From positions 1-35,303 of the forward strand of contig JAUNJS010000001.1 of the NCBI GenBank assembly GCA_030533125.1: 35,303 nt of DNA, written 5' to 3'. Under the pieces are notes generated by a model. It ran no database searches. It was not told the origin of the DNA and saw only the letters and a list, made by a program, of their open reading frames with translations. A program made the translations under genes and the position numbers. The stretch is from Eubacteriales bacterium. Lineage in GTDB: Bacteria > Bacillota > Clostridia > Lachnospirales > Lachnospiraceae. Each line of letters opens with the position of its first letter. The stretch's first letter is position 1. This document shows, one piece after another, positions 1,734 to 30,037 of this stretch.

Positions 1734-1743
1734 ACCTTAAACC

Positions 1744-4104: not shown

Positions 4105-4276
4105 TTTTTTCTCCTTTCTGAATGATGTAAGGACAGTGTTCCCTGACGTAGTAAGAGCCACCGGATTCCTAAACATATCTTCTCTATTTCTTTATTCATT
4201 CTTATGACTATAGGATTGCGCTCCGAACGTGTATGAATACATTTGCAACCATCCGGCTCGCTGTTTCATTCATAAC

Positions 4277-5023: not shown

Positions 5024-5065
5024 GGATAACCTCCCACAGTATTCCGTATAGATGATTTTTTATGT

Positions 5066-5788: not shown

Positions 5789-5791
5789 CCC

Positions 5792-6382: not shown

Positions 6383-6383
6383 C

Positions 6384-7703
6384 TCAGGCTCTCATTTCTG
6401 TTATAACATTTCTCAGGGTATCACTCACATATTCCACATCCTCATCAGATAGCAGTGTATGGAACGGCAGTGTGACTAAATTATGGTAGTAATCGTATGC
6501 ATTAGGATACGCGGAACAGTCTTTCCCGTACGCAGTCATCATTGGAAGCGGCTTATAGTGGACATTGGCGGCCACACCTCTTTCCGCCAGCATCACGATC
6601 ACCCTGTTTCGAGTCTCCTCGTCGATCCCGGGAATACGAATCGTATAGAGGTGGTTCGATGAATCCATATTATCGGTATGGTGTACCAGATGCTGGATCC
6701 CCAGCTCATCACAAACCTTGTCGTATGCTGTCAGGATCTGTCTTCTGCGCCGCAGCAGTCCCGGATATCGATCCAGCTGGCGAAGGCCTATGGCAGCCAT
6801 GATATCTGTCATATTGCATTTGTACCATGGACCTATGATGTCATATTCCCATGCGCCGACCCTGTTTTTCGTCAAGGCATCTTTGTTCTGTCCATGAAGG
6901 GAGAGCAGCTGATACATTTCATATAATTCACTGTTGTCTATTCCTTCAATCGGCAGCCATGTAGAAGCCCCGCCTTCCGCCGTTGTAAAGTTCTTGACAG
7001 CGTGGAAACTGAACGAAGAAAAATCCGCGATTCTGCCGCAGTACTTTTTTTCATTTCCGGTTATCCTGCTTGCTCCAAGAGAATGCGCGCAGTCCGCTAC
7101 TACTGCCACACGTCCGATCGACTTCTGAATGCGGGACGCGAGATCACCCATGGGAGAGCCATCGGATTCAATGGGTTTAAACAGCCCTTTCTTTTTCTCA
7201 ACGATCTCGTAAATCCGGTCATAGTCCGCGACAATTCCGCCGAGATCCACCGGAACCACAGCCTTTGTCTTCTCCGTGATAGCCTCTTCAAGCTTTTCGT
7301 AATCCATCTCCGGCATGTGCGTAACCGGATCTCCGTCCTTCCGGATATCTACGAACTTTACAGTCGCTCCGCAATGAATAGCAGCCGACGCCGTTGAGGT
7401 ATACGTATATGCAGGGACAATCACTTCATCACCGGGACCGACTCCAATCATTCGGAGATTGAGCTCCTCAGCCGCAGTCGCCGAGTTAAGACAGACAACC
7501 CTATGAGCGTACTTCAAACCAGCTTCCTCTTTACTGCAATCAATATCTGTCCTCCCGGTCTCGATATATGCAGCAAGACGACGCTCCAGCAGTTTAGTCC
7601 TGGGACCCGTTGTAATCCAGCCGCTTCTCAGCGTTTTAGCCACTTCTGCGATCTCAGATTCTGAAATGTCTGGGGGGCTGAAACTGATTGTACGTTTTTC
7701 CAT
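6384..7703 (-). CDS. DegT/DnrJ/EryC1/StrS PLP aminotransferase, AatB/WcfR-like (UDP-AATGal type)
   Basis: FSPPDI..EIAEV..TLRSGWITTGPRTK, SFSFHAVKNFTTAEGG, LSLHGQNKDAL, WEYDI...YKCNMTDIMA and NVHYKPLP match my recollection of the pneumococcal AatB/Bacteroides WcfR subfamily. GAGGA RBS before ATG 7703. Confidence 0.88.
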   Translation of the reverse strand: MEKRTISFSPPDISESEIAEVAKTLRSGWITTGPRTKLLERRLAAYIETGRTDIDCSKEEAGLKYAHRVVCLNSATAAEELNLRMIGVGPGDEVIVPAYTYTSTASAAIHCGATVKFVDIRKDGDPVTHMPEMDYEKLEEAITEKTKAVVPVDLGGIVADYDRIYEIVEKKKGLFKPIESDGSPMGDLASRIQKSIGRVAVVADCAHSLGASRITGNEKKYCGRIADFSSFSFHAVKNFTTAEGGASTWLPIEGIDNSELYEMYQLLSLHGQNKDALTKNRVGAWEYDIIGPWYKCNMTDIMAAIGLRQLDRYPGLLRRRRQILTAYDKVCDELGIQHLVHHTDNMDSSNHLYTIRIPGIDEETRNRVIVMLAERGVAANVHYKPLPMMTAYGKDCSAYPNAYDYYHNLVTLPFHTLLSDEDVEYVSDTLRNVITEMRA

Positions 7704-7799
7704 CTTTTTGTTCCTCAATTATCTATAGAAAACGATCTAAAGAGTTAATCAAATAAGAACCAAATGATTCAACAATACTTGTCCTAGAAAAAGGAGCAT

Positions 7800-9380
7800 T
7801 TACGCGGTCTCCACATATTCTGTTCCGATTACAGAAACCTCATACTGCTGCAGGTCATTCAGTAAATCCACAACCATTCTGCGCGAGGTTTTTTTCGACA
7901 GAAGCGCAATAAAGACAGGCGTCTTTCCGACATATACACGCTCGTCATAAAACATTGTTTTCTTCCCGGCTGTTTTGATCTCTACATCCATTCCGTGTTT
8001 ATCCACAAGGTATTCCCGCTGTTTCTCCAGAAGGAACGCTGCGTCTTCGGATAACTCTCCCGCCGCGATCATGGTGATTTTATCTGCCTTCAAAAGACTG
8101 CTGCGAAACGCGACGGTTTCAGCGATTGTCCTTGTATCCTCCGGTTTCGCGGAGGTACCGTATCTCCGGACATAGATCTTCTTATCATGCAGAAACCGTT
8201 GGAGTGCCGTTCTGTACGGGTACTCATACAGCCCGCCGAAGGAACGAATTCCTGTCAGATCCTGAATCTCCTTTTCGCTGCGGACGTTCTGAGAGGCCAA
8301 CGTGCGGTAGAAAGAGATCAATATGTACAGAATCATACCGATCAGAAATCCCACAATCACATTGCCGATAGAGAAATGTGGAGGCGTAACAACGTCTTCT
8401 TCGCCTTCTTCAGTTTCCGCGAGGGCGATCCCCAGTCGCTCAGCGACCTGATCAATACTCGTTTCTGCTCCTTCTACTGACTGTAATTCACTCAGCCCGG
8501 ACTGAACATATCCCTTCGCGATCATTGCGTCCGCTTCTTCTCTTTCCTCCGGGGTAAGATTTATATACTTCTTTATAAAAGTGCCATAAGCGCTCTTGAC
8601 GTTCTCATAAGCTTTCGTCTGCTGATTCAACCGGTCCGTACTGCTCACCGTGTATTCGCTTGCGTAAACCAGTTCCAGCGTACTCCCCTTTGCAATAGTG
8701 CTGGCTTTCTTCATTTTCTCCAGCTGATCCACAAAGAGTTTCTGAACCTTACTGCCTTCTATATTCCCGGGCAGGATCATCGTAATCTTAAAAGCCAGTG
8801 AAGCTTCCCGCTCAATCTCCTTTTTTTCCCCCGGAACGGATGTCCAGGACAGTTCCCGGACATACATGGGATCCTGTGCGCAGCCCAGGAGCTCTATCAG
8901 CTGTGAGTTAAATGTCTCGTCATTTTTATAGGAATTATACAGGTTTACCAGCGTTCTGGCATCCGCCTGCTCACTTCCCCCCTCTTTGACATAGAAGGTC
9001 ATCTCAAGTCTTCTCTCATTAAAAGGATCCAGGCTCATGATAAGAGAATTATCGTAATAATCCTTTTTTTGTTTGTATTGTAGATAGTAAGTGAGTGTCT
9101 CCGGAACCGGAAGGCCCACGATTCCTTCGATCGCAGGGTTCTTTTCATTTTTGTTCTCTGTCCCTTCTTCTCCGGACTCGACTCCTTCCTCTAATTGGTA
9201 ATTTTGGTAATTGTCCTGCGCCTGATACGCCTTTTTATCTAGATAATACTTTCCCGTGGAAACCAGGATAGCAAAAATGAGCCCAACAACCAGAAGACCG
9301 CGCCACTGCTCCGCCAGATCCCACAGGAAATCCGACAGCACGATTACATGTTCTTCCATTTTCCGTTTCTCTTTCACCAC
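7800..9380 (-). CDS. Polysaccharide co-polymerase / chain-length determinant (Wzz/CpsC-like) with C-terminal extension
   Basis: N-terminal TM (WRGLLVVGLIFAILV), large loop, second TM (VIVGFLIGMILYILISF), then VRSEKEIQDLTGIRSFG. GGAGG RBS before GTG. Confidence 0.6.
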   Translation of the reverse strand: MVKEKRKMEEHVIVLSDFLWDLAEQWRGLLVVGLIFAILVSTGKYYLDKKAYQAQDNYQNYQLEEGVESGEEGTENKNEKNPAIEGIVGLPVPETLTYYLQYKQKKDYYDNSLIMSLDPFNERRLEMTFYVKEGGSEQADARTLVNLYNSYKNDETFNSQLIELLGCAQDPMYVRELSWTSVPGEKKEIEREASLAFKITMILPGNIEGSKVQKLFVDQLEKMKKASTIAKGSTLELVYASEYTVSSTDRLNQQTKAYENVKSAYGTFIKKYINLTPEEREEADAMIAKGYVQSGLSELQSVEGAETSIDQVAERLGIALAETEEGEEDVVTPPHFSIGNVIVGFLIGMILYILISFYRTLASQNVRSEKEIQDLTGIRSFGGLYEYPYRTALQRFLHDKKIYVRRYGTSAKPEDTRTIAETVAFRSSLLKADKITMIAAGELSEDAAFLLEKQREYLVDKHGMDVEIKTAGKKTMFYDERVYVGKTPVFIALLSKKTSRRMVVDLLNDLQQYEVSVIGTEYVETA

Positions 9381-9450: not shown

Positions 9451-10119
9451 TTACAGCGGCTTGATCTTCCTTTCCACCAGTTTCGCGGGGTTTCCGTACA
9501 CCATTCCGTGCGCGGGAATGGATTTGATGACGTTGGAGGCCATGCCGATGAAGGCAAATTCTCCGATCTCCGTATAATTGTTCACGGAAGTGTTCAATCC
9601 GAAAAAGCATCCCTGCCCGATGGTATTGTTGCTACCGATCACGGAGTGGGCCGCAAAAAAGCAGTTGTCGCCGACCACGGTATCATGACCGATCAGGGTA
9701 TTGGACTGAATCGTCACATGGTTCCCGATAATCGCGTTGGAATTAATGACCGCATTGGCCATGACAGCTGTCCCGTGCCCGACCTTCGCGGACCGCACGA
9801 CCGTGGCGAGCGGATGGATAAAGGTCGCGTAGCGTTCCTCCGGGATGCCGTACCAGTCCCTCCACCCGATCCTCTCTTCGATCTTGTCGGGACGCCACAT
9901 CTGGAAGATGAATTTGACGTCTTCATATTGTCCGTATTTCGAGAAAACCTCCCTGGATCCGCACAGCAGAGGAAAGCCGTTGATTTCCTTTCCGTAAGTG
10001 GGGTCATCGAATGCGAAGCCCAGAAACTCCACGTCCGCCCCGCGCAGCTGCGCGTCATAGATCTGTTCCCCGATCAACAGTCCCGATCCCTTGCCTCCGA
10101 TAACAATAATCTTATCCAT
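9451..10119 (-). CDS. PglD/NeuD-family sugar acyltransferase (left-handed beta-helix)
   Basis: N-terminal IIVIGGKGSG, ATFIHP, hexapeptide repeats, IGHD and C-terminal VYGNPAK. Confidence 0.88.
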   Translation of the reverse strand: MDKIIVIGGKGSGLLIGEQIYDAQLRGADVEFLGFAFDDPTYGKEINGFPLLCGSREVFSKYGQYEDVKFIFQMWRPDKIEERIGWRDWYGIPEERYATFIHPLATVVRSAKVGHGTAVMANAVINSNAIIGNHVTIQSNTLIGHDTVVGDNCFFAAHSVIGSNNTIGQGCFFGLNTSVNNYTEIGEFAFIGMASNVIKSIPAHGMVYGNPAKLVERKIKPL

Positions 10120-10160
10120 TTTCTTTTCCTTTTTTCTTAAAACAATACTGGTTGTCGTGT

Positions 10161-10199
10161 AAAACTGCAGTGCGAATGATCTCGCAGATCGTTCTGCAG
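10161..10199 (-). terminator. Possible intrinsic terminator/attenuator hairpin
   Basis: Minus strand CTGCA-GAACGATCT-GCG-AGATCATTC-gcac-TGCAG followed by TTTT. One mismatch, one bulge and a short U-tract. Confidence 0.3.
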
Positions 10200-10268
10200 G
10201 CTGTGATTCATATAGTGTGTCCGACGGTTAAACCGGGATGTCAGCCGGAGTGCCGGCCGTCCCCTGTT

Positions 10269-10958
10269 TCAGGATTCTCCCTGTTTCTCCGATTCGTCCG
10301 CCGGCCTTACCGCGCCCTCTTTGGTTCTGGTCCATCCGGCGCGCTCCACATGGAGGCTGGTGGGCATTTCCTCTCCCTGGCCGATCCCCTCGTGGATAAA
10401 CACTTTTTTCACCGTCTTGAACAGAATCTTCAGGTCGCCCGGGAAGGTGATGTGGTCGACATATTCCAGGTCGTAGGCAAACTTTTCCTCCCAGGAGAGG
10501 TTGTTCCTGCCGTTGACCTGGGCCAGACCGGTCAGACCGGGCCGCACGTCGTGGCGGTGCCTCTCCTTTTTGGTATAAAAAGGCAGATAAACGACCGCAA
10601 GGGGCCTCGGCCCCACGATGGAGAGATCCCCCTTCAGAATGTTGAGGAGGGAGGGAAGCTCATCCAGGGAAGTCGCCCGGATAAGGCGCCCGTATTTATT
10701 GAGGCGGTCCTTGTCCGGCAGGAGCTTTCCGTCGGCGTCCTTTTCATTGGTCATGGAGCGGAACTTGATCAGCCGGATGATCTTCTCTCTTCCGGTCTTT
10801 TTGTCCCTCTTGCCGGGTCTTTTCTGCAGATAAAACGGATTGCCTTTCATCTCCACGGCGCCGACGACCGTGAGGAGCAGGAGCGCCGGACTGAGGATGA
10901 CCAGGGCAAACAGAGAAAGCCAGAAATCAATAAAACGTTTAAAAAATCCTGCGTACAT
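10269..10958 (-). CDS. PglC/EpsL-like priming phosphoglycosyl transferase
   Basis: KRFIDF, QKRPG, KFRSM, LLPDKDRL, RATSLDELP, GPRPL, RHDVRPGLTGLAQVNGRN and WEEKFAYDLEY. GAGGA RBS before ATG 10958. Confidence 0.92.
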   Translation of the reverse strand: MYAGFFKRFIDFWLSLFALVILSPALLLLTVVGAVEMKGNPFYLQKRPGKRDKKTGREKIIRLIKFRSMTNEKDADGKLLPDKDRLNKYGRLIRATSLDELPSLLNILKGDLSIVGPRPLAVVYLPFYTKKERHRHDVRPGLTGLAQVNGRNNLSWEEKFAYDLEYVDHITFPGDLKILFKTVKKVFIHEGIGQGEEMPTSLHVERAGWTRTKEGAVRPADESEKQGES

Positions 10959-11054
10959 ATGTATCCTCATGTCTGTGGTTTTGTCCTTTGTCCACAGACC
11001 CCTTTGCATATTGCATAAAGCTGTGCACACGGAAGAATGCAGATGCGCACTGTC

Positions 11055-11984
11055 TTATTTTCGTTTTGCGGTCAGCCCTGCCTGCACCATCACGTTTTCC
11101 GCCCGCTTCCGCATCGGAGGACCCACCATGGTTCCGTTCAGCATGGCAACTCCCGAGGTGCCCTCCCCGGCTGCTTTCTGAATCGCCCCGATGACCCGGC
11201 CGGCGTGATCGATCTGCTCCTCGTCGGGAGAGAACGCCCTGTTTGCCGGCGCGATCTGTCTGGGGTTGATCAGAAGACAGCCGGCGAACCCGTTTTTGTA
11301 GGCCAGTTTCTCGTTTTCCTCAAACCCGCTGACATCCGGGATGTTCAGGTAGGGTGTGTCGATCGGCAGCAGGCCGTTCATGCGGGCGGCGTTGGCCAGT
11401 ACCGCGCGGGGCCAGGCGAGCGCCGTCTGCTGATAGACATAGATTGTGCCGAGATCATTCAGATAGTCCTCCCCGCCGAGACACAGGGCCGTCAGCCTCG
11501 GGCTTGCCTTCGCGATCTCGCAGATATTCGCGATGGCGGCAGTAGTCTCGATGAGCGGAGCCAGCCGGACACTCCCGGCCGGCAGACCGTTTTTGATCTC
11601 AAAAAACTCCAGCAGCCTGTCGATAAAAACAAGGTCCTCCGCAGTCTCGATCTTGGACGGCATCAGCCCGTCGACCCCCGGGAGAATGAGCTCCGAGAAA
11701 TCCCGGACGAAATCCTCCGTCCCGAGATGGTTGATCCGGATGTAAACGGTCTTCCGTTCCAGTTTTCCGCTCTCCGAATACTGCCGCACGATTCCGCGCG
11801 CCTCTTCCCTGCGGGCAGGCGGGACGGCGTCCTCCATATCGAGAATGATCGCGTCCGCCTCGCTCTCCAGCGCCTTATCAATAAACTTCGTATTGTGTGC
11901 GGGCAGGAAGAGGAAACTCCTCATCAGGCGCGGAGCGCTTTCCTGCCGCTCTCTTTGATGCTGTTCTCCTGTATGTCCTGCCAC
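11055..11984 (-). CDS. CitE/malyl-CoA lyase family (HpcH/HpaI aldolase-citrate lyase superfamily)
   Basis: RSFLFLPA, DAIILDMEDAV, YIRIN, PLIET, LGGEDY, PIDTPY, LINPRQI and GTMVGPP. The start is GTG 11984 (AAGGAG upstream) or ATG 11924. Confidence 0.9.
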   Translation of the reverse strand: MAGHTGEQHQRERQESAPRLMRSFLFLPAHNTKFIDKALESEADAIILDMEDAVPPARREEARGIVRQYSESGKLERKTVYIRINHLGTEDFVRDFSELILPGVDGLMPSKIETAEDLVFIDRLLEFFEIKNGLPAGSVRLAPLIETTAAIANICEIAKASPRLTALCLGGEDYLNDLGTIYVYQQTALAWPRAVLANAARMNGLLPIDTPYLNIPDVSGFEENEKLAYKNGFAGCLLINPRQIAPANRAFSPDEEQIDHAGRVIGAIQKAAGEGTSGVAMLNGTMVGPPMRKRAENVMVQAGLTAKRK

Positions 11985-12126
11985 TGCTGTTCATCTCCTT
12001 TTCCATCTGCGCATGCCGTTTCCGGTCTGCCGACAGTCTGCTGCGGGTCACAGAGGAATGTTTTCCGAATGCTTCTGAATGCTCCCCCGCCCGGCACTCC
12101 CTGTCTGAATCCGGCCTGCGGAAAGC

Positions 12127-13677
12127 TCACAGGCTTATGTTCCCGTGTTTTTTCGGGAGGCTGATCTCCGTTTTTTTATTTTCGAGCCCCCGGAATGCCA
12201 GGATCAGTTTTTGCCGGGTCTCCTCGGGGAGGATGATCTCATCGACAAACCCGCAGGAGGCAGCGAAATAGGGGTTCAGGTACTGTTTTTCGTATTCGCT
12301 GATCTGCCGCTCCCGGAAGGCGTCCGGATCCTCCGCGTCCCGGATCTGTTTCTGGAACATCACGTCCACTGCACCGTCCGCGCCCATCACCGCGAGTTCG
12401 CAGATCGGCCAGGCGTAGACGAGATCCCCTCCCATCGCCTTGCTGTTCATGGCGCAGTAGGCGCCGCCATAGGCTTTCCGCATGATCACGGACACCTTTG
12501 GGACCGTCGCCTCTGAGAACGCGTACAGGATCTTGCTGCCGTGCCGGAGAATGCCCTTCATCTCCTGCTGTTTGCCCGGGAAGAATCCGGGCACATCCAC
12601 GAGGACAAGCAGGGGGATCTCGAAGCAGTCGCAGAACCGGACAAACCGGGCGCACTTGTCGCCCGCGTCGCAGTCAAGCGATCCGCCCATATACAGGGCC
12701 TGGTTCGCGACGACCCCGATGCTCTTTCCCTCCAGACGGATAAAGCCCGTGACCAGATTTCTGGCGAAGCCCTCCGAAAACTCATAGAAGTCGCCGTGAT
12801 CGGAAATGCAGCGGATGACCTCGCGGACATCATATGGGTGCCGCTTATTCTCCGGGACGATGTTTTCGATCTTCAGCCCCCTCTTCGTGTAGTCGACCCC
12901 TCTGCGCTTTTTGTGTTCCACCTGCGGCTGTGTGAGGAAGGACAGGACCCTCCGGATCTGGTTGATGCAGTCCTGGTCGTTCTCGCAGACAATGTGAGCC
13001 TGACCGCTGTGTTCGGCGTGAACGCCCGCGCCGCCGAGTTCGTTCATGGAGACGTCCTCGCCTGTGAGCGCCTTGATCACGCGGGGACCGGTAATGAAAA
13101 ACTGCCCTGTCTCCTTCACCATCAGGAGAACATCGCACATAGCCGGGGAATAGGCGGAACCGCCCGCGCAGTTTCCCATGATCGCGGCGATCTGCGGAAT
13201 ATAGCCCGACGCCTGTGTATTGAGGTAGAACAGTCTGCTGTAGGCTGAGAGGGACAGGATCCCTTCCTCGATTCTGGCGCCCCCGCTCTCGCACATCTGG
13301 ACAAACGGGGCGCGCGCCCGGATCGCCATTTCCAGAGTGCGGCTGATCTTGCTGACGTGCGTCTCGCCCCCGGCGCCGCCGCTCACTGTAGTGTCCTGCG
13401 CGGCCGCGTAGACGATTTTGTCATGGACGCGGCCGTATCCGCAGACGACGCCGTCTCCGATATACTGGCGTTTTTCGATCTTCTCCGGGATGATCCGCGT
13501 CTTCGCGTACATTTCTATTTCCGTAAAAATCCCGTCGTCAAACAGCAGCTCCATCCGCTCGCGGGCTGTCAGCTTTCCCCTGGCGTGTTCCCGGTCAATG
13601 CGTTTCTGACCGCCGCCCAGGAGAGCCTCCTCCCGAACGCTCCGGTATTCCTGCCTGTATTTTTCTTCCCATGCCAT
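12127..13677 (-). CDS. Acyl-CoA carboxylase carboxyltransferase subunit (PccB/MmdA-like)
   Basis: GKLTARER, DGVVCGYG, SGGARIEEG, CAGGSAYSPA, DVPGFFPG, RKAYGGAY and terminal KKHGNISL. GGAGG RBS. Confidence 0.93.
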   Translation of the reverse strand: MAWEEKYRQEYRSVREEALLGGGQKRIDREHARGKLTARERMELLFDDGIFTEIEMYAKTRIIPEKIEKRQYIGDGVVCGYGRVHDKIVYAAAQDTTVSGGAGGETHVSKISRTLEMAIRARAPFVQMCESGGARIEEGILSLSAYSRLFYLNTQASGYIPQIAAIMGNCAGGSAYSPAMCDVLLMVKETGQFFITGPRVIKALTGEDVSMNELGGAGVHAEHSGQAHIVCENDQDCINQIRRVLSFLTQPQVEHKKRRGVDYTKRGLKIENIVPENKRHPYDVREVIRCISDHGDFYEFSEGFARNLVTGFIRLEGKSIGVVANQALYMGGSLDCDAGDKCARFVRFCDCFEIPLLVLVDVPGFFPGKQQEMKGILRHGSKILYAFSEATVPKVSVIMRKAYGGAYCAMNSKAMGGDLVYAWPICELAVMGADGAVDVMFQKQIRDAEDPDAFRERQISEYEKQYLNPYFAASCGFVDEIILPEETRQKLILAFRGLENKKTEISLPKKHGNISL

Positions 13678-13762
13678 ACCTGTGGGACAACCTCCAATAC
13701 ACTGTGCCGCGTCCGCTTCGGATAAAACTGTCCGGAGGACAAACTGACGCGGCGAAACAATC

Positions 13763-14227
13763 TCAGGATTCTCTCTTTTTGATCAGGACGTGTCTGCGGA
13801 ACCGGAGTACGTCCTTTCCATCCTGGTTATACCCCGTTGTCTCCACATAGATAATGCCTCTGTCGGGTTTGCTCTTCGATTCCCGGCACTCCAGGATTAC
13901 GGACCGCGCGTAGAGCGTGTCGCCGACAAAAGAGGGACCCAGATGTTCGATCTTTTCGTAATCGAGATTGGCGATCGCCTTGCCGCTGATATCCGGCACC
14001 GTAAAGCCGACCACCAGGCTGAATACCAGCGTGCCGACCACCAGGACGCGGCCGTGCACCTGCTTTTCCGCGTAATCCCGGTTCGTATGCACAGGATGCG
14101 CGTTCATGGTCAGCAGGCAGAACAGATTGTTGTCGCTCTCAAAGATTGTCTTGGACAGGGTATGCTGAATCTCCTGTCCCACGGTGAAATCCTCGAAATA
14201 GTTGCCCATATTGCTCGGTGTGATCAT
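13763..14227 (-). CDS. MaoC-family (hotdog-fold) acyl-CoA dehydratase/hydratase
   Basis: GNYFEDFTVGQ, ESDNNLFCLLTMNAHPVH (D...H catalytic motif), VGDTLYARS and SKSKPDRGII. AGGAGG RBS before ATG 14227. Confidence 0.9.
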   Translation of the reverse strand: MITPSNMGNYFEDFTVGQEIQHTLSKTIFESDNNLFCLLTMNAHPVHTNRDYAEKQVHGRVLVVGTLVFSLVVGFTVPDISGKAIANLDYEKIEHLGPSFVGDTLYARSVILECRESKSKPDRGIIYVETTGYNQDGKDVLRFRRHVLIKKRES

Positions 14228-14345: not shown

Positions 14346-15323
14346 TCACAGCCGTCCCCGCTTGAGGAAAAGCTGCAGTTTCCACTTCATCGTATTGATC
14401 GGATTGTAGTTCGCGTATTTTTTCGCGATTCGGGTGAAATCCGCAGATCTGTAGGTCTGCCAGAACTGCTTCCTGTCCGCCGGCGGATCAAAGGGAGCGA
14501 TCAGCGGTTTCTGCAGGCTGTCTTCGACCCTTGTCTTCCTGCAGACCGCCCTGTCCGCGCAGGTTTCAAACAGTTTCTCTCCGCGGGCTGTATTGATCAG
14601 CACCAGGGAAACACCCTTGTTGTCCCAGAACTCCGGCAGCGCCTTTTCGATCCCCCAGTAGTCCGCGATCGTGATGTCCGCGGGGTGGATCGTTTTTTTA
14701 TAAGGACACTGATAACAGGAGGGGCGGAGGATCCGGTGCCCGTAAAACAGCCGGGGGAACACCCTGCTGTCCAGGGTCTTCCCGTCCGCGAAGGTCAGTG
14801 TGGTGACATGTGTCTTCCACCCGAACTTTTTCTTATTGCGGCAGATGACATCCCTGACCGCCTTTTTTTTCCGGCCCGCTTCCCAGGCCAGATAGTCGCG
14901 CCAGACCAGGGGGCTCGGCACGCCGTGGCAGACGATGTCGACCGTATAGAGCCTGTCCATCCTGTCTTCCGGCGTGTTTCTGTACTGCAGGAAAGCGAGC
15001 AGGCCCGCGATCTGACAGGACGTCCCGGAAAAGAGAACGGTCCGTCCGTCCTCCAGGTCCTTCGCGGCATCGAGATAAACCGTCCCCGGACTGCTCTGCA
15101 CATATTTTGAGCCCCGCATCCGGTCGCGCCCCTCGCGGGTTTCGGTCCTCGCATGAACCGCCTCAAACCGGTCATTGAAGACACAGCCGTATACGACACC
15201 GCCCCGGTCCAGGATGGAGTCGGACAGCACGGCAAACATTCCGCCGGACTGGGAGCGGAGCCGCTCCGAATCCTCCCTGTGCTTTGCCGCGTACACAACG
15301 GGCGTCTGAAAATACTGCGTCAT
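14346..15323 (-). CDS. Coenzyme F420 hydrogenase/dehydrogenase beta-subunit (FrhB/FdhB)-like protein
   Basis: SQSGGMF, MRGSKYVQS, VLFSGTSCQIAGL, DIVCHGVPSP, RPSCYQCPY, DITIADYWG and GVSLVLINT. ATGA overlap with the upstream ferredoxin. Confidence 0.88.
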   Translation of the reverse strand: MTQYFQTPVVYAAKHREDSERLRSQSGGMFAVLSDSILDRGGVVYGCVFNDRFEAVHARTETREGRDRMRGSKYVQSSPGTVYLDAAKDLEDGRTVLFSGTSCQIAGLLAFLQYRNTPEDRMDRLYTVDIVCHGVPSPLVWRDYLAWEAGRKKKAVRDVICRNKKKFGWKTHVTTLTFADGKTLDSRVFPRLFYGHRILRPSCYQCPYKKTIHPADITIADYWGIEKALPEFWDNKGVSLVLINTARGEKLFETCADRAVCRKTRVEDSLQKPLIAPFDPPADRKQFWQTYRSADFTRIAKKYANYNPINTMKWKLQLFLKRGRL

Positions 15324-15559
15324 TCAGTGCTCCTCTCCGCGAATCCGCCGGACTGATCCTTTTTAAACGCGCAGACCCGCAGGCACAGTTCACACCGGAT
15401 ACACTTCGTCTCATCCACCTGCGGATACAGAAAGCCCTCTTCGTCGGGTACCATCGCGATGGCGCCCGCAGGGCATATACAGCAGCACGCGGAGCATCCG
15501 CAGCAGCTTCCCTTTCCGTCGTACAGGACCGGACAGGGTTTTTCTGGTGAAGAGGACAT
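15320..15559 (-). CDS. 2x[4Fe-4S] ferredoxin-like protein
   Basis: CCGCSACCCICP and CIRCELCLRVC with linker DEEGFLYPQVD. AGGAGG RBS before ATG 15559. Confidence 0.88.
   Translation of the reverse strand: MSSSPEKPCPVLYDGKGSCCGCSACCCICPAGAIAMVPDEEGFLYPQVDETKCIRCELCLRVCAFKKDQSGGFAERSTE
15352..15368. repeat. 17-bp exact direct repeat, copy 1 (ACTGATCCTTTTTAAAC)
   Basis: Identical to 17143-17159. Confidence 0.8.
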
Positions 15560-15711
15560 CGTCCCGACCTCCTTTTGCGGCACAGAATTCTGTGTCATCC
15601 TGTTTGAAACGCCTTCCGGCTCTGCCTGAATCCTTCTCATCCCCTGTAAAAGCGATTTCCGCCGCCTTTTATCTCTGCCTTACAGACCCCGGTCTGATCC
15701 GCTGTCTCCTT

Positions 15712-17221: not shown

Positions 17222-18322
17222 TCATGAACTGATCTCCTCCAGATACCGGACGCTCTCCTGCCGCAGAATGGCGAGCCGCCTTCCGGCCTCCTGATAGTTA
17301 ATTTCCTCGCGGGGAATGGTATCCGGATTCTCCGCCAGCCGGTCTTCCAGCCCCGCCGCTTCCAGCAGGTCCCTGGTTCTCCCGCCTCTCGTCGAGTGCG
17401 CGATCGCGATAAACGGCTTTTCGTAAATGATGGAAAACGCGGTTCCGTGGAAGGAATTCGTCACCACGAACTGCGCGTTCTTCACAAGGGACAAAAACCT
17501 GTCAGGGCCGATGGCGATCTCTTTCCTGGTTCCCCGGACGCGGACAAACGGATTCGGAGAAATATCCACGATGCGGAGGCCTTTTTCCCGCGCGGTCTTT
17601 TTCGCGATCCGGACGGACTGTTCCGAATTCTGGATGTTGTAGAGGAGGAGGTACGGGGCGCCGGCTTTAAAGTCCGTGCTCTCCATATCCCTATAGTCCT
17701 CTTTTCCGAGAAGGAGGGTGCAGTCCAGCACTGCGGGCACTTCGCGGCCGATCGCAAGGGAGAGCTTTTCAGCGGCGGATTTCTCCCGCACGGAGACCCC
17801 TGCGAAACCTTCCGTCAGCGCGGCGAGCTCCGCGGCATTGCCCTCGATATCGTATTCCCCCAGACTGGCGCCGTAGGCGGCTCTCTTCCCGTCCGTAAAC
17901 TGCAGGAAAAACGCCCGGTCCGGCATTCCTCCCGTGAGGGCGGGATTCCAGATCTGGTCGCTGCCGCAGATATACAGATCCGCGCGGGGAGGGTCCTGCA
18001 GGAGGCTCTCATAGGTATGGTAAACCCGCGTAAGCGGAAGATTCTGACGGATGAACCGCTCGAAACACCGGTCTCTTCCGGAAAACTCCCCGGCGTGAGC
18101 GAGGTACGCCGCGCCCTTGATCAGGGCCCTGGCCTTGTTCCGGGCTTTTCCGGCCTTTTTGAGTTCCCTGAAGACGCTCTTTTTATCCAGGACATAATAC
18201 GGGAGGTAATTGATGACCTCGACCTCCTGCCCCATCGACGAGAGCCTTCGCATCAGCGCGGCGCACTGCAGGGTCGCTCCGAAATTGGATGTATTGTGAA
18301 AGGTTATGACCGCTGTTTTCAT
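17222..18322 (-). CDS. Polysaccharide pyruvyl transferase family protein
   Basis: ITFHNTSNFGATLQ, GSDQIWN, SVRE, DCTLLL and TNSFHGTAFS. GGAGG RBS. Confidence 0.88.
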   Translation of the reverse strand: MKTAVITFHNTSNFGATLQCAALMRRLSSMGQEVEVINYLPYYVLDKKSVFRELKKAGKARNKARALIKGAAYLAHAGEFSGRDRCFERFIRQNLPLTRVYHTYESLLQDPPRADLYICGSDQIWNPALTGGMPDRAFFLQFTDGKRAAYGASLGEYDIEGNAAELAALTEGFAGVSVREKSAAEKLSLAIGREVPAVLDCTLLLGKEDYRDMESTDFKAGAPYLLLYNIQNSEQSVRIAKKTAREKGLRIVDISPNPFVRVRGTRKEIAIGPDRFLSLVKNAQFVVTNSFHGTAFSIIYEKPFIAIAHSTRGGRTRDLLEAAGLEDRLAENPDTIPREEINYQEAGRRLAILRQESVRYLEEISS

Positions 18323-18360
18323 CAAAGCCTCCCTGTCCTTCGCCGACCGCCCGGGCTGTT

Positions 18361-24305: not shown

Positions 24306-25337
24306 TCATCCGCGGTATTTCGGGAAAAAGTTCTCGTTTTCCGGCTTAACCATCCCGAGCAGATCCTCGTACGCCTCCCGGTTGAAGATCTTTTTTCCGA
24401 TATGGAAGCGGTTCAGATCCCCGCGGTAAAAGGCTCTCTTGAATTTGAACAGGCTGTCTTCGCCGGAACCGACGCCGCCGCCGAGATAGAATGTCTTATA
24501 CCCGTTTTCGCACCCCCACAGAGCCGCTTCATAGAGAAGGAGGTTGGTCGGCGCCAGTGGACTGTACTGCCGCACGCTTCCGGAGAGATGATAATTCATC
24601 CTGCAGTTCGCCGTCAGGATGATCGACGCAGCGATCACCTCCCCCTCCCGCTCAGCGTAGAATACCTGCGCGTTCCTGGGAAGGTCCTCGAGAACGGAGC
24701 GGTAAAACTCCTTCCCGAAATAATAGTATCCGGAGGCCCGGTCCTTATCCATCGTCTCGTTGTAGATCCGCCGGAAGGTTTCGTAAATCGCGGGATACTG
24801 CCCGCGGTAGATCTTTACGTCGTTTTTCACGGCCTTGCGGATCACGTTCCGGTTTTTGCTGGTAAGATTAGCCCAGACCGTATCCGGAGAGGACAGATCC
24901 ATGCAGATGACTTCCCCGAGGGGAATGACTTCGTAAAACGGCGCGCACGCGGAGTGGTTATGAATGACCGGGTGAAACCGCACAAATTCCGAGACAATCC
25001 GGTGTCCGGCCGCCCATTCCCCGTATTCCTGAAACAGGCGGTCCGTGCCGTCCCCCTCGATGATCCACCCGCCGTAGCCGTAGGGAGTGGCAAAGTCAAA
25101 GAGCTGTCCCTCCGCGATCCGCCCCGTAACTCCCGGGGCTCCTGCGATGTCCCGCCGCATGACGACGTTCATGCCTCTCGTCTCCCCGTTCTCATGGAAA
25201 ATCAGAAGAGGCTCGCCGTCTCCGTGAATCCGGAACGCCCTGACATATCCGCTGAGCCAGTAGGTATCATAGTCGGAGAAAGAGCGGACGATCCTGTCCC
25301 ATTGATCGGACTGCTCCAGTGTAAACGTAGTGATCAT
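24306..25337 (-). CDS. FemAB-like GNAT-fold (amino)acyltransferase
   Basis: DFATPYGYGG, SEFVRFHP, RNVIRKA, YHLSGS, PTNLLLY, LGGG and LFKFKRAF. Confidence 0.8.
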   Translation of the reverse strand: MITTFTLEQSDQWDRIVRSFSDYDTYWLSGYVRAFRIHGDGEPLLIFHENGETRGMNVVMRRDIAGAPGVTGRIAEGQLFDFATPYGYGGWIIEGDGTDRLFQEYGEWAAGHRIVSEFVRFHPVIHNHSACAPFYEVIPLGEVICMDLSSPDTVWANLTSKNRNVIRKAVKNDVKIYRGQYPAIYETFRRIYNETMDKDRASGYYYFGKEFYRSVLEDLPRNAQVFYAEREGEVIAASIILTANCRMNYHLSGSVRQYSPLAPTNLLLYEAALWGCENGYKTFYLGGGVGSGEDSLFKFKRAFYRGDLNRFHIGKKIFNREAYEDLLGMVKPENENFFPKYRG

Positions 25338-25355: not shown

Positions 25356-26468
25356 TTATTCCTGATCCTGTTCTGTTATGTGTCTGACGATCCGCTCCAT
25401 ATCATCCTCCCCGTAGCGCTGGTCAACGGGGATACAGAGGATATGGCTGTAGATTTCCTCCGCCGCTCCGCACACCGGAGGCAGCGTTTCGGGCCTCGGC
25501 CACACCACCGGCGCGTAGATCCGGTGCTCCCGCAGGGAGGACTGCAGGGCCGCCCTGTCCTTCACCCACAGCGGACAGTACAGAGGAACATCCCTGTCCG
25601 TCAGCGCGCCGGTGATCGGCCTGATCCAGGGGAGACCGCGCACGCCCTCGTAAATCACCCGGTAGTTTGCCCTCCGCCTTTTGATCAGGGCGGTTCTGTC
25701 CAGCGCGCGGAAAGCCCGCTCCGAGACCGGGCTGATCCGGTATACTCCATTTTCGGAATCCAGGATGTTCTCCGCCTCCGCGAACAGATCCAGCATGGCC
25801 TGCTTTTCGCCGCGCGCGTGAAAGATGTATTCATATTTGGCGGCGCTCGCCCGGATTGCCGCGGCCGTCAGCGCTTCGTCATAGACATCCGGTTTCTCCG
25901 GGAAAAGGCCCTCCCGGCAGAACACGTATCCTCCGTCCGGCATTCCCGCCCATTTCCGCAGGCTTCCGACGATATAGTCCGCCGGGAGCGCCGGCCAGCC
26001 GCTGAACAGAGACTGGGTCCGGTCCTCGAGGAAGACGACGCCTTTTCCCCGAAGGCTTTCCACCACCCCGCCGCAGCCCGCAAGTGTCTCAAAGCCGAAG
26101 TACCGGTGCAGGAGCACGACATCCGCGCCTGACACCTCGACCGCGTCGCGGAGCGCCTCCGGGGCTGTGCGCAGACTGTCGTCAACCGGACAGGGAAAGA
26201 TTTCGTAGCCGCGGGCCAGAAAAGGTTCGACGACGGTGTGACACGTGAACGGGGGAAGCAGGGCTCTCCTGCCGGCCGCGGGATTTCTCCTGCGTATTTC
26301 GTCGAGCGCCATTCCCTGTGCCGCGCGTCCGGTCGAAAGAAAGACTTCATCCGAACCGGAAATCCCGAATCCGGAGAGCGTCAGCGGAGAGCCGTTCCCC
26401 TCACCCGTTCCCGCCCTGATCCCGACGGCGGGATCCATCCAGAAGCTGCTTCCGATTTCAGGCATCAT
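25356..26468 (-). CDS. Divergent DegT-like PLP-dependent enzyme
   Basis: EIGSSF, STGRAA, LPPFTCHTVVEPF, HRYFGF, EDRTQS, GSLRKW..MPDGG, RRRANY and IPVDQRY. GGAGG RBS before ATG 26468. Confidence 0.7.
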   Translation of the reverse strand: MMPEIGSSFWMDPAVGIRAGTGEGNGSPLTLSGFGISGSDEVFLSTGRAAQGMALDEIRRRNPAAGRRALLPPFTCHTVVEPFLARGYEIFPCPVDDSLRTAPEALRDAVEVSGADVVLLHRYFGFETLAGCGGVVESLRGKGVVFLEDRTQSLFSGWPALPADYIVGSLRKWAGMPDGGYVFCREGLFPEKPDVYDEALTAAAIRASAAKYEYIFHARGEKQAMLDLFAEAENILDSENGVYRISPVSERAFRALDRTALIKRRRANYRVIYEGVRGLPWIRPITGALTDRDVPLYCPLWVKDRAALQSSLREHRIYAPVVWPRPETLPPVCGAAEEIYSHILCIPVDQRYGEDDMERIVRHITEQDQE

Positions 26469-26488
26469 TTTCCCGGTCCTCCGGACGT

Positions 26489-27790
26489 TCACAGAAAACA
26501 TCTGTGAATGATCTCAATAATGCGGTCCTGCTGCTCCGGCGTCATCTTGTTGTCGCTCGGCAGGCACAGGCCCCTGTGGAAGATATCCGCTCCCACGTCA
26601 AAGGCGGGATCCATGCAGAAGCGCGTGCTCCCGCTCTCGCGGGCGAGGCCTTCCCTTGTCACAAAAGCATTTGTCCTGTAAATCGGCTGCAGATGCATGG
26701 GTTTCCAGATCGGGCGTCCCTCCACGTTGTTCGCCGCGAGCGCCTCCAGAATCTCTGTCGGGCAGGTCTTCCCGCTTTCCGGGCTGTACTGCGCGATTTT
26801 GTCTCCGCGGCTCTGTCCGCACATGGCGTCCTCGTCGATGATCATGCAGCTGAGCCAGTAATTGGGCAGGGATTTCTCCCGGTCAAACGGGTTCATCCGG
26901 ACCGGAAGATCCTTCAGGCCCTCCTGATATCTCTCGTAGATCGCTTTTTTCTGGGCGATGTGCTCCGAAATATAGGGTAACTGTCCGCGCACGACGCCCG
27001 CGATCACATTGCTCATGCGGTAATTGTACCCGATTTCCTCGTGCTGGTACCAAGCAGCATCTTCCCGAGACTGCGTGCTCCATTTGCGGACCTTGTCCGC
27101 GTCGTCCAGAGAGTCGGTCAAAAACATTCCCCCGGAACTGCCCGTGATAATCTTGTTTCCGTTGAAGGAGATGCAGTTAAAATCGCCCAGAGAACCCGTT
27201 TCTCTCCACTCTCCGCAGTCCAGATACTTCGCGCCGAGGCTCTCCGCGGCGTCCTCCACAATCAGCGCACCTTGGCGCTCGCAGATCTCCCTGATCTCCC
27301 TGATCTTTCCGGGAGTCCCGTACAGGTGCGCGAGCACCACCAGCTTCGCGTCCGGGTAGAGCGCGAACGCCTGCTCCAGTGCCGCGGGATCCATATTCCA
27401 GGTATCCCGCTCCGTATCGATAAAAACGGCCTCCCCGTCCTCATACGCGATCGGATTGATGGACGCGTCAAAAGTCAGATCGCTGGCAAGAACAACCTTT
27501 CCGCGCAGCGTCCCGTCATTCACTTTCGCCCTTCCGTATATTTTTTCGCCGGCGAGCCTTGTCGCGAGGTGGAGCGCGGCCGTCCCCGAACTGAGAGCAA
27601 CCGCGTATTTCACACCGATGTACTCCGCCATCTGCGCTTCCACCTCGTTGAGGTTTCTGCCCACAGTGCTCATCCAGTTTGTCTCAAAGGCCTCCATCAT
27701 ATAGCGGGCTTCCTCCCCGTGCATGGTAGGGCTGCTGAGATAAATGCGGCTCTCAAAAGGCTTTTTGTCAGGATTGTTCTTGTATGCCAT
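26489..27790 (-). CDS. DegT-family aminotransferase, PglE/EpsN-like
   Basis: IYLSSPTM, SSGTAALHLA, EDAAESLGA, SFNGNKIIT, GYNYRMSN, RPIWKPMHLQP and GLCLPS. GGGAG RBS before ATG 27790. Confidence 0.92.
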   Translation of the reverse strand: MAYKNNPDKKPFESRIYLSSPTMHGEEARYMMEAFETNWMSTVGRNLNEVEAQMAEYIGVKYAVALSSGTAALHLATRLAGEKIYGRAKVNDGTLRGKVVLASDLTFDASINPIAYEDGEAVFIDTERDTWNMDPAALEQAFALYPDAKLVVLAHLYGTPGKIREIREICERQGALIVEDAAESLGAKYLDCGEWRETGSLGDFNCISFNGNKIITGSSGGMFLTDSLDDADKVRKWSTQSREDAAWYQHEEIGYNYRMSNVIAGVVRGQLPYISEHIAQKKAIYERYQEGLKDLPVRMNPFDREKSLPNYWLSCMIIDEDAMCGQSRGDKIAQYSPESGKTCPTEILEALAANNVEGRPIWKPMHLQPIYRTNAFVTREGLARESGSTRFCMDPAFDVGADIFHRGLCLPSDNKMTPEQQDRIIEIIHRCFL

Positions 27791-27886
27791 AATGTCGCTC
27801 CCGGTTTCTCGTCCGGCAGCCCGGATCCCAAGGCTGCCCATACATGAATGACTGCTCCCCGTCTTATTGAATCACAAAAATGCCGG

Positions 27887-30037
27887 TCAGGGCTTTCCAT
27901 CTTCCCCGTCTCCGCGGTCTTCTTCTGTGTCCTGTTCCGTCTCCTGCCGGTCTGCCAGCAGGCTGTCGTAAACCGTATCCTTCTTCGCGCCTTTTCCGGC
28001 GTTCGCGGGATGATAGGTGGAAACTGTCTGCTCGACCAGACTGATGATCTTCTCTTCCTGATTGGCGTAGGAGACTCTCATCAGGTTGTCCAGCTGCCGC
28101 AGAAACACATTGACCTCAAAAGGAATCGGGCAACCGATGTGAATCAGGGCGTTCTCGGTTTTTTTCAGCCCTTCCTCCGCCATCAGCTTCTCCTCATAGA
28201 GCTTTTCGCCCGGGCGAAGGCCGGTGTATTCGATCCGGATATCCACATCCGGCTTGTAACCGGACAGGCGGATCAGGTTCCTCGCGAGGGTATCGATCTT
28301 CACGGGGCTCCCCATATCGAGGACGAAGATCTCTCCGCCCTTCGCGTAGGTCCCCGCAAGCATGACGAGACTGACCGCCTCCGGAATTGTCATGAAATAG
28401 CGGATGATATCAGGGTGCGTGACCGTTACAGGACCGCCCTTCTCGATCTGCTTTTTAAAAATAGGAATCACTGAACCGTTGCTTCCCAGAACATTTCCGA
28501 ACCGGACAGCAACAAATTCAGTGCGGATGTCGCGGAAGATCCTGCCTGTCCCGTCCCGGTCGGCATTCTCCACGCCCTCATGTGTAAACAGCTGAGGAAT
28601 CTCCGAGGCCCTTCCCTCCTTGATTTTCTGATCGAAGCTCTGGATGATCATCTCGCAAAGGCGCTTGCTGGCTCCCATGATGTTCGTGGGATTGACCGCC
28701 TTGTCCGTGGAGATGAGCACGAACCGCTCGCAGCCGTGGACCATGGCCGCGTACGCCGTCTTATACGTCCCGATCGCATTGTTCTTGATCGCCTCGCAGG
28801 GGCTGTCCTCCATCAGGGGAACATGCTTGTGCGCGGCGGCGTGATAGACAATCTGCGGACGGTATTTTTTGAAAATCTCGAAGACGCGCCGGCTGTCCCG
28901 GACAGATCCGATGAGCGTCTCCAGCCGGAGATCAGGATATTTCTCCCGCAGCTCCAGCTGAATATCGTACGCGTTGTTCTCATAGATGTCAAAAATAATC
29001 AGAAGGCTCGGGGAATGCGCGGCGATCTGCCGGCAGAGCTCGCTCCCGATGGAACCTCCCCCGCCGGTGACCATGACGCTCTTGCCGTGGATGAAGCTGA
29101 ACACCTCCTGCATATCCGCCCGGACAGGATCCCTGCCGAGGAGATCCTCCACAGAGACGTCCCGCATAGCGGAAACAGTGAGCTGGCCGGAAATGAACTG
29201 GTACATGCCAGGGAGGTTCTTCAGCTCGCACCCCGTCTCCTGGCAGATCGCCAGAATGTCGCGGCGCTCCGCCGCGGTCGCGCCGGGAATGGCCAGGTAG
29301 ATCTTGTCCACATGATATTTCTCCGCCATCTCCAGGATAGAATCACGGCCGCCGACAATCGGAATTCCGTCTATAAACCGGTGCCATTTATTCGGCTCAT
29401 CGTCAATAATACAGACGACCCGCTCCCCGAAATCATGCGATTTGTTGATGTCCCGCAGGATCATGTTTCCGGCGGCGCCCGCGCCGATCAGCATGACGTT
29501 TTTGACCGGAGGTCCCTGTTCCGCCCGTTTATTCAGGCCGAGCAGGAGCAGGAGCCGGTACGAAAACCTGACTCCGAGGATCAGAATCAGCTGGAACACT
29601 GCTCCCATCGCGTAATAGGATACGGGCATCCGCCTGTAGAAAACCGTAATACCGATAATATGAACCAGCGACGTGAGAATCGCCGCGGCAACCACGCGCA
29701 CAAGCTCGGAATAACTGGCAAATCTCCACACGCTGTTATACAGCCGGAGCCGCCAGAAGATCAGAATGCACAGAAGTGTGTAGATCAGTGTGAAATGAAT
29801 CCAGGCCTGCAGAAACCGGTCCGGAATCACTGAGAAACGGCAGTCGAACCGGAACCAGAGCGCAAGAAAATACGCTGCATTGACTGCAACGATATCATAT
29901 AGAACCAGGATCAGACTGATGACCTGCCAGTGAAGAATGCGTCTTCCTGTTGTATTGACTTGATCTGATTTATTGTCCATGTCCATGAAAATCCATTTTT
30001 CCAGGTTGTTCCGCCTGTCGGATCCGGGCGGAATCAT
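27887..30037 (-). CDS. Membrane-anchored UDP-GlcNAc 4,6-dehydratase (PglF/CapD/EpsC-like)
   Basis: Four N-terminal TMs, IGAGAAG, VEDLLGRD, TGGGGSIGSE, HAAAHKHVPLME, STDKAVNP, VRFGNVLGSNGSV and GLRPGEKLYEE. The exact start is uncertain. Confidence 0.95.
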   Translation of the reverse strand: MIPPGSDRRNNLEKWIFMDMDNKSDQVNTTGRRILHWQVISLILVLYDIVAVNAAYFLALWFRFDCRFSVIPDRFLQAWIHFTLIYTLLCILIFWRLRLYNSVWRFASYSELVRVVAAAILTSLVHIIGITVFYRRMPVSYYAMGAVFQLILILGVRFSYRLLLLLGLNKRAEQGPPVKNVMLIGAGAAGNMILRDINKSHDFGERVVCIIDDEPNKWHRFIDGIPIVGGRDSILEMAEKYHVDKIYLAIPGATAAERRDILAICQETGCELKNLPGMYQFISGQLTVSAMRDVSVEDLLGRDPVRADMQEVFSFIHGKSVMVTGGGGSIGSELCRQIAAHSPSLLIIFDIYENNAYDIQLELREKYPDLRLETLIGSVRDSRRVFEIFKKYRPQIVYHAAAHKHVPLMEDSPCEAIKNNAIGTYKTAYAAMVHGCERFVLISTDKAVNPTNIMGASKRLCEMIIQSFDQKIKEGRASEIPQLFTHEGVENADRDGTGRIFRDIRTEFVAVRFGNVLGSNGSVIPIFKKQIEKGGPVTVTHPDIIRYFMTIPEAVSLVMLAGTYAKGGEIFVLDMGSPVKIDTLARNLIRLSGYKPDVDIRIEYTGLRPGEKLYEEKLMAEEGLKKTENALIHIGCPIPFEVNVFLRQLDNLMRVSYANQEEKIISLVEQTVSTYHPANAGKGAKKDTVYDSLLADRQETEQDTEEDRGDGEDGKP

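Follow-up and report, generated by a model that had tools for sequence, protein, structure and literature searches.

We describe a gene cassette for coenzyme A (CoA) esters within a polysaccharide locus of a Lachnospiraceae genome (Eubacteriales bacterium, assembly GCA_030533125.1). The stretch analyzed, here called the window, comprises 35,303 nucleotides and is the entire contig JAUNJS010000001.1 of a 3.7 Mb genome that is 80% complete. The core of the cassette consists of a MaoC-fold hydratase, a CitE-superfamily enzyme and a left-handed beta-helix acyltransferase; an acyl-CoA carboxyltransferase (CT) is optional and a PglC-type phosphoglycosyl transferase is a local neighbour. The CitE-like enzyme carries a glycine where related enzymes have the aspartate of their lid. 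Very probably the cassette is a dedicated acyl donor for the glycan, and the acyl group probably has a malate skeleton, in a 3-hydroxy-dicarboxyl or an enoyl form. In the window the genes in question are the following.

13763..14227, minus strand: hydratase with a MaoC fold, type mesaconyl-CoA hydratase / RipB, retaining the malate pocket and the Asn-x4-His dyad
12127..13677, minus strand: acyl-CoA carboxyltransferase of the PccB/MmdA/12S subfamily, cassette-CT clade; 516 residues, PF01039 E 5e-166
11055..11984, minus strand: CitE-superfamily enzyme; 309 residues, PF03328 E 2e-35, E146/D173 and R83 kept, Gly288 in place of the lid Asp
10269..10958, minus strand: PglC-like phosphoglycosyl transferase (open reading frame (ORF) 11030-10269, likely start at 10958); a partner in this locus and inconstant in the cassette elsewhere
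9451..10119, minus strand: PglD/VioB-like left-handed beta-helix N-acyltransferase, TIGR03570 138 bits; its subfamily adjoins the cassette in 8 other loci

In the route that we propose, the CT would form methylmalonyl-CoA from propionyl-CoA, and the CitE-like enzyme lacking the lid Asp would condense methylmalonyl-CoA with pyruvate or glyoxylate under loss of CO2. The MaoC hydratase would turn hydroxy into unsaturated acyl forms and back, and the beta-helix enzyme would put the malate-type acyl group on an amine, probably that of an amino-acid spacer on bacillosamine. The predicted products are a 2,3-dimethylmalyl group with pyruvate or a beta-methylmalyl/mesaconyl group with glyoxylate. We infer every one of these reactions from what was observed directly, namely gene identity, co-occurrence, residue patterns and host pattern, and the full route from the CT through a decarboxylative CitE to a malate-type acyl on an amino sugar is a tentative proposal, close to an even call.

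The locus and its gene calls

Transcription on the minus strand runs from MaoC through the CT, the CitE-like gene and the phosphoglycosyl transferase to the beta-helix acyltransferase, inside a Wzx/Wzy polysaccharide locus. A preliminary description of the window, made from the sequence alone, had placed three CoA-thioester genes upstream of the priming transferase and the acyltransferase, and indeed all five reading frames are intact and co-oriented. The 154-residue hydratase has an ATG start codon served by a purine-rich ribosome site (PF19315 E 3e-17, PF01575), and the top PDB match of the phosphoglycosyl transferase is Campylobacter PglC (E 6e-60). Third-position GC content is 0.72-0.78 in all five genes and 0.71-0.80 in the genes upstream, and it drops to 0.40-0.54 from position 9380 downwards, where a separate cassette lies. 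No second copy of CitE or MaoC was found by tblastn in the genome, at its 80% completeness, and scans for promoters and terminators gave nothing exceeding chance. A CoA transferase was not found among the 31 window ORFs scanned, as had been noted before.

Composition of the cassette across genomes

Scanning GTDB genomes with the CitE protein alone yielded 14 loci, all of which contained a MaoC gene (14/14), 13 the beta-helix acyltransferase, 8 a CT and a single one a priming transferase. A metagenome scan contributed 63 further loci. The retained set holds 49 distinct CitE proteins (at least 270 residues, at least 40% identity, Gly lid motif), and 28 of the 49 loci have full context with 3 kb on either side. 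In these 28 loci MaoC was present 27 times, the acyltransferase 25 times and the CT 19 times; a second CitE-like gene occurred in 17, and a priming transferase stood beside the cassette in one (4/49 overall). It is from these counts that MaoC, CitE and acyltransferase emerge as the core, with the CT optional and PglC local. Ordinary CitE loci of the same phylum (n=29) had none of the cassette genes within flanks of 1.5 kb. The neighbourhood search suggested in the preliminary description thus revealed a linkage exceeding chance, whereas two of its other propositions have to be corrected: the trio of hydratase, CT and CitE is not a fixed unit, and the tie to PglC is confined to few loci; elsewhere the partner aminotransferases (12 scanned) score best as DesI/VioA-like, PseC or LegC-like.

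The gene order of the cassette varies between loci, and its neighbours are glycan genes, comprising flippases, glycosyltransferases, pseudaminic-acid genes and flagellin. For this survey 100 proteins were scanned, standing for most of the 105 neighbour clusters, and no transporter or regulator travelling with the cassette was found among them. The nearest relatives of the cassette (58-82% identity for MaoC) lie in glycan loci and not in glycan-unlinked catabolic operons, whose plasmid-borne homologues share 44-50% identity; this argues for the dedicated acyl-CoA donor that had been suggested for the window. That a catabolic itaconate/mesaconate operon landed by chance in the glycan locus, next to a plain acetyltransferase, is highly improbable. 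The RipB and RipC models do match below threshold and the plasmid homologues do sit in catabolic operons, but the linkage to acyltransferase and glycan genes is near-constant despite the shifting gene order, no transporter or regulator co-travels among the neighbour clusters, most of which were scanned, and the loss of the lid Asp is specific to the glycan-linked clade.

The cassette, which occurs in anaerobic bacteria, is rare and mobile. It was found in 0/400 other genomes of an order sample, in 1/398 genomes of a sample from the class of G410 (2 genomes unscored), and in 0/400 of a phylum sample, judged by scores at the level of the clade (the best other match had E 7e-74; of 49 matching genomes, 29 were inspected). 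Searched at the DNA level with the L010 cassette, E. coli genomes gave no match, and the plasmid matches listed were homologues of the ordinary kind, with identities not above 38% for CitE and 50% for MaoC. That surface amino sugars can have dedicated acyl donors is a known idea. In agreement with the preliminary description, whose author knew of no described pathway with these genes, we found no account of this gene set in the open literature, subscription journals being outside the search.

Sets of pseudaminic-acid genes surround the cassette in four loci (L010, L053, L063, L072). These point to a pseudaminic acid with an unusual N-acyl group, which some hosts would carry on flagellin. Cultured carriers of the cassette include Alkaliphilus peptidifermentans DSM 18978, to which L010 belongs, and Parablautia muri D42-62 (L002). 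The 40% identity filter excluded distant Gly-lid CitE proteins (L089-L096, L106) and CitE fusions (L100-L104), which occur in other contexts. The former share 33% identity, have no evident glycan locus around them and are flanked by conserved proteins of 440-500 and 364-368 residues with no Pfam/NCBIfam match. The fusions, such as L100:7483-9582 and L102:215-2281, have about 690 residues and combine CitE and mesaconyl-CoA hydratase-like domains.

The CitE-like enzyme lacks the lid aspartate

The assignment of the CitE-like protein to its family holds: the TIM barrel and the C-terminal lid are intact (AlphaFold2 pLDDT 89; Foldseek TM 0.86 to malyl-CoA lyase 4L9Z), and E51, D52, R83, E146 and D173, comprising the Mg ligands, the water-binding Glu-Asp pair and the catalytic Arg, are present in 51/51 sequences. 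What had been overlooked is the loss of the lid Asp. Gly288 aligns with Asp299 of the Rhodobacter sphaeroides malyl-CoA lyase (MCL), so that the protein departs from the canonical lyases, and it is no citrate lyase by its score either (TIGR01588 176 of 443 bits), with no CitD or CitF partner among the window ORFs scanned. Glycine occupied the lid site in 120/120 of the homologues listed, the query included, and in the 29 ordinary CitE controls this site was Asp 28 times and Glu once. A profile search clustered at 50% gave 151 rows with Gly in 43, Ala in 10, Ser in 7, Thr in 1, Asp in 80, Glu in 6 and a gap in 4. The top 25 of these rows had Gly 22 times, Ala, Ser and a gap once each and Asp never, and the small residues throughout them indicate selection for a small residue. 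The Asp loss is specific to the glycan-linked CitE clade. When 20 Gly-lid representatives were looked up by cluster, Cloacimonadota and Kordiimonas were the only names obtained.

According to Zarzycki and Kerfeld, the lid Asp is conserved in malate synthases and throughout the CitE superfamily, except that one thioesterase group has Glu, and it is the proposed base that takes the alpha proton from acetyl-CoA (PMC3832036). A small lid residue would be expected if the enolate arose by decarboxylation of a malonyl-type thioester, whose carboxylate would fill that space. It is possible, if doubtful, that a multi-phylum CitE clade has traded its general base for a (methyl)malonyl-CoA pocket and, supplied by an acyl-CoA carboxylase of its own, catalyzes a decarboxylative aldol reaction, leading to a methyl-branched malate acyl group unreported on glycans and perhaps providing the route to N-malyl groups.

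The second CitE-like gene (L001:8922-9695 and 16 other loci) has Glu at the lid site in all five sequences aligned, like the malyl-CoA thioesterase group. Its product is possibly a proofreading thioesterase or a partner subunit.

The hydratase retains a malate-type pocket

The best PDB matches of the MaoC protein are the mesaconyl-CoA hydratases 4E3E and 8HGN. Eight residues have been reported to form the malate site of MeMeaC (8HGN; PMC10164722), and in a mapping done by hand S81, N87, R145, N42, H47 and G65 of the cassette protein correspond to six of them. Each of the six is kept in 39/39 cassette sequences. The positions of MeMeaC Phe71 and Tyr248 are Val, and the pocket should therefore be roomier. 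Because the malate-contact residues are kept, the substrate likely has a malate skeleton, in accordance with the dicarboxylic-type acyl group envisaged in the preliminary description. One plasmid-borne RipB has five of these six malate-site residues as well, G65 excepted. The cassette protein is a single domain of 154 residues and not a double hot-dog chain of about 350 residues such as MeaC/Mch.

The carboxyltransferase and the host pattern

The CT is complete, with two domains and both oxyanion-hole motifs, and its best matches fall within the PccB/MmdA/12S group. PccB, MmdA and the transcarboxylase 12S subunit score 552-513 bits, methylcrotonyl-CoA carboxylase beta subunits (MCC-beta) and AccD1 at most 263 bits and glutaconyl-CoA decarboxylase 100 bits. 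It falls short of the cut-off for the Na+-pumping methylmalonyl-CoA decarboxylases (TIGR01117 659 of 999 bits), and the window has no delta, biotin-carrier or beta genes of such a complex. In a quick tree of 48 rows the CT belongs to a clade of 18 cassette-only rows (SH-aLRT 100). A related CT is found in a different small gene cluster (L119:3321-4865, G402). One Phe of the cassette CT we take, by its motif, to be the site limiting acyl chains to four carbons. Such a limiting CT site has been described (PMC5187497), and at the specificity site corresponding to PccB Asp422 the enzyme has Cys, like the propionyl-CoA carboxylase AccD5 (PMC2886142).

These scores also bear on a leucine-type route run in reverse, modelled on the CitE/MaoC/AccD1 set of Mycobacterium tuberculosis, in which MaoC and AccD1 genes presumably neighbour Rv2498c. 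It would lead from 3-hydroxy-3-methylglutaryl-CoA (HMG-CoA) through methylglutaconyl-CoA and methylcrotonyl-CoA to 3-hydroxy-3-methylbutyryl-CoA, the acyl group of anthrose. Rv2498c is an (R)-HMG-CoA lyase of the CitE family (PMC6689899), but the window CT sides with the PccB/MmdA and not with the AccD1/MCC-beta types, the hydratase retains the Ser and Arg that bind the malate carboxylate, and the CT is dispensable in 9/28 loci, which makes this route very unlikely.

For the direction of the CT reaction the genes that follow the cassette are informative. L004, L045, L046 and L047 have genes for a biotin carrier and for a biotin carboxylase of the AccC type (above the cut-off of that family) in this position, and L045-L047 and L054 have one for a YdiF-like CoA transferase; one member of each of the three families was scanned and the others were assigned by BLAST cluster. 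The only biotin carboxylase match of genome G404 lies inside the cassette. Since one lineage thus brings a biotin carboxylase, we lean slightly towards a CT that runs in the carboxylating direction and feeds the CitE-like enzyme. In the window's own genome a biotin carrier lies in an Oad-like operon on contig C171, and together with a pyruvate-carboxylase-sized ORF on contig C358 it might supply carboxybiotin.

The host pattern was assessed in 16 genomes, of which nine (G000, G401-G408) have a cassette with CT and seven (G409-G414, G1087) a cassette lacking it. All seven CT-less hosts have an MmdA outside the cassette (814-949 bits), several of them in operons with biotin-carrier genes. In the nine CT-bearing hosts the best non-cassette MmdA-type match reaches 744 bits (G402), followed by two pieces of 335 bits in G000 and at most 431 bits in the rest. 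Because a CT is found in the cassette only in hosts without a canonical MmdA, the cassette seems to need the product of the PccB/MmdA reaction and to supply the CT itself when the host lacks such an enzyme. Methylmalonyl-CoA mutase was detected in 0/9 CT-bearing hosts versus 3/6 others; from this lack we infer that the PccB/MmdA reaction runs only toward methylmalonyl-CoA.

We also considered the CT as a patch for a malonyl-CoA shortage in hosts without acetyl-CoA carboxylase. This was rejected, since AccA is present in 5/9 CT-bearing and 0/6 CT-less hosts tested and a shortage therefore fails to explain the CT.

Methylmalonyl-CoA rather than malonyl-CoA or another extender is a tentative choice. 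A decarboxylative route with malonyl-CoA, giving malyl or citramalyl groups, or with a polar extender such as tartronyl-CoA from glycolyl-CoA is unlikely. With AccA missing in 6/6 CT-less hosts tested an MmdA-type enzyme may be their malonyl-CoA source, but five CT-bearing hosts already have AccA. As to the polar extender, six cassette CTs (of which five also have Ser at another site) and 7/8 of a second clade have His at the Tyr/Phe site of housekeeping CTs, for example L004:8423-9964 and L068:9656-11173. By spacing only, these sites are equivalent to His143/Ser100, the changes (L100S/Y143H) that turned propionyl-CoA carboxylase into an engineered glycolyl-CoA carboxylase (PMC10729300). The window CT, however, has Tyr and Gly there.

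The acyltransferase and its acceptor

The acyltransferase has the PglD/VioB fold with the catalytic His motif and remains below the TIGR03570 cut-off (138 of 161 bits). Its acceptor has to be sought among the sugars of the locus, for which four genes farther upstream are relevant.

24306..25337, minus strand: FemAB-type GNAT, candidate amino-acid transferase to an amino sugar
25356..26501, minus strand: divergent DegT-like protein with the fold of pyridoxal-phosphate enzymes, recurring with ATP-grasp/WbqC/FemAB genes beside the cassette
26489..27841, minus strand: PglE-like sugar aminotransferase
27887..30037, minus strand: PglF-like UDP-GlcNAc 4,6-dehydratase

As the window encodes PglF-, PglE- and PglC-like proteins, a bacillosamine-type sugar is likely. 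Eight loci have an acyltransferase sharing 50% identity or more with that of the window, and every one of them carries an ATP-grasp gene (6) or a WbqC gene (2), as compared with 8/23 other loci of at least 12 kb; WbqC we take to be a glycine transferase. Together with the FemAB gene of the window, this linkage indicates that the acyl group may cap an amino acid on N4. The direct acylation of N4 assumed in the preliminary description is therefore doubtful, and attachment through an amino-acid spacer on bacillosamine is the likely arrangement. L073 repeats the set of aminotransferase, PglC-like, DegT-like and FemAB genes with the cassette. The divergent DegT-like proteins (window 25356-26501; L082:3114-4070 and relatives) belong to no clear family and adjoin ATP-grasp, WbqC or FemAB genes.

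Weighing the decarboxylative route

Several points weigh against the proposed route. We know of no glycan from a carrier of the cassette. The host pattern comes from 16 genomes, many of them incomplete metagenome-assembled genomes, with a score threshold chosen after the fact; at 600 bits, 2/9 CT-bearing hosts (G000 by summed pieces, and G402) have a further full-length CT, and the CT-bearing hosts are non-independent because most are Lachnospiraceae or rumen Clostridia. The loci with biotin carrier and carboxylase form one subclade, neither gene was found in the window, and the only biotin carboxylase match of G000 is the pyruvate-carboxylase-sized ORF on C358 (genome 80% complete). Isocitrate lyase, as a source of glyoxylate, was found in 0/5 CT-bearing hosts tested. 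The acceptor is ambiguous as well, since priming transferases occur twice in the window and sugar aminotransferases at least twice, one of each in the low-GC cassette. Glu172 of the CitE-like enzyme, near-invariant (50/51), occupies the site of the MCL Ala that makes room for an alpha-substituent, and it could repel the malonyl carboxylate or serve as a substitute base. Finally, E. coli malate synthase G activity was abolished when the equivalent Asp was lost (PMC3832036) and the CLYBL variant D320A has been called catalytically null (bioRxiv 2024.09.25.614871). As loss of the Asp kills these related enzymes, the CitE-like protein could be inactive as an aldolase.

In a rival reading the acyl-donor cassette is the same, but the CitE-like enzyme would act on acetyl- or propionyl-CoA by an aldol reaction of the ordinary kind, with Glu172, a bound water or the lid of a second CitE subunit acting as the base and malyl-, citramalyl- or methylmalyl-CoA as the product. 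Loss of the Asp would then mainly remove thioester hydrolysis, and the CT would supply propionyl-CoA or trim an intermediate. N-(4-malyl) amino sugars occur in polysaccharides of Pseudoalteromonas rubra, Vibrio vulnificus CECT 5198 and Shewanella algae BrY (PMC3210612), for Rv2498c a mechanism of cleavage by way of barrel residues and water has been proposed (bioRxiv 322404), and the second CitE-like gene of 17/28 loci has the Glu lid in the five aligned. This second CitE is, however, missing from the window and from 11/28 loci; a decarboxylating CT requires a source of methylmalonyl-CoA, which the mutase could provide in none of the nine CT-bearing hosts; and the biotin carboxylase of one lineage indicates carboxylation. 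An ordinary aldol reaction is accordingly improbable, though it deserves to be kept in mind.

If the decarboxylative route holds true, a CitE that forms C-C bonds with loss of CO2 would make otherwise unfavourable pyruvate condensations irreversible, which would be useful for synthetic carbon-fixation and C5-dicarboxylate pathways that depend at present on malyl-CoA lyase. A testable route to N-malyl sugars would follow as well, together with a genetic handle on the acidic N-acyl groups of gut-anaerobe capsules and flagellin glycans, groups that shape phage and antibody recognition.

Comparison with known systems

Malyl-CoA/beta-methylmalyl-CoA lyase, together with mesaconyl-CoA hydratase, serves the ethylmalonyl-CoA pathway and the 3-hydroxypropionate bi-cycle. 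The cassette would work like this pair run biosynthetically: it shares the CitE barrel, lid, Mg ligands and Arg, and the Asn/His dyad and malate pocket of the hydratase (4L9Z, 4E3E, 8HGN). It differs in the Gly of the lid, the single-domain hydratase, the location in glycan loci, the acyltransferase and, often, the CT. The MaoC and CitE gene pair is likewise found in itaconate degradation (RipABC / Ict-Ich-Ccl), and the cassette MaoC has the Asn-x4-His motif, Ser, Asn and Arg of RipB. Unlike in RipABC, both proteins remain below the NF038241/NF038242 cut-offs (141/340 and 163/375) and the window has no CoA transferase; moreover, RipC keeps the lid Asp, and Val64-Gly65 replaces the Asp-Ser of RipB. 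With the leucine/itaconate catabolism around M. tuberculosis Rv2498c the cassette shares a CitE-family lyase and, presumably, MaoC and CT neighbours, but that set is catabolic and glycan-unlinked and its CT is of another subfamily.

The Pgl bacillosamine pathway (PglF, PglE, PglD, PglC) has counterparts in the PglF-, PglE- and PglC-like genes and the PglD/VioB-fold transferase of the window, which in contrast to PglD is below the family cut-off, is tied to a CoA-ester cassette and is accompanied by a FemAB gene. Non-acetyl N-acyl variants include the acyl group of anthrose, 3-hydroxybutyryl and glyceramido groups, and to our knowledge the known N-acyl donor routes involve neither CitE nor a carboxylase. 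The N-(4-malyl) polysaccharides of the three strains named above show that malate-type N-acyl groups do occur on bacterial polysaccharides; genes for these sugars were not found in the open literature searched.

Other features of the window

The low-GC cassette at 645-9380 has its own aminotransferase and priming transferase, a WecD-like protein (weak match) and FabG, and also a probable acyl carrier protein, an AMP ligase, a thioesterase and a LuxE-like gene. This set is likely another acyl-donor system of the locus, one based on a carrier. Between 20660 and 24251 an AraD epimerase, an NAD-dependent reductase, an IspD-like cytidylyltransferase and LicD adjoin one another next to a Stealth gene; they likely constitute a CDP-pentitol route to a phosphodiester-linked polymer. 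Besides, genes for FrhB-like proteins and ferredoxin accompany a polysaccharide pyruvyl transferase gene at 14346-15640 and 17222-18325, a pairing that is repeated in L059 and L077.

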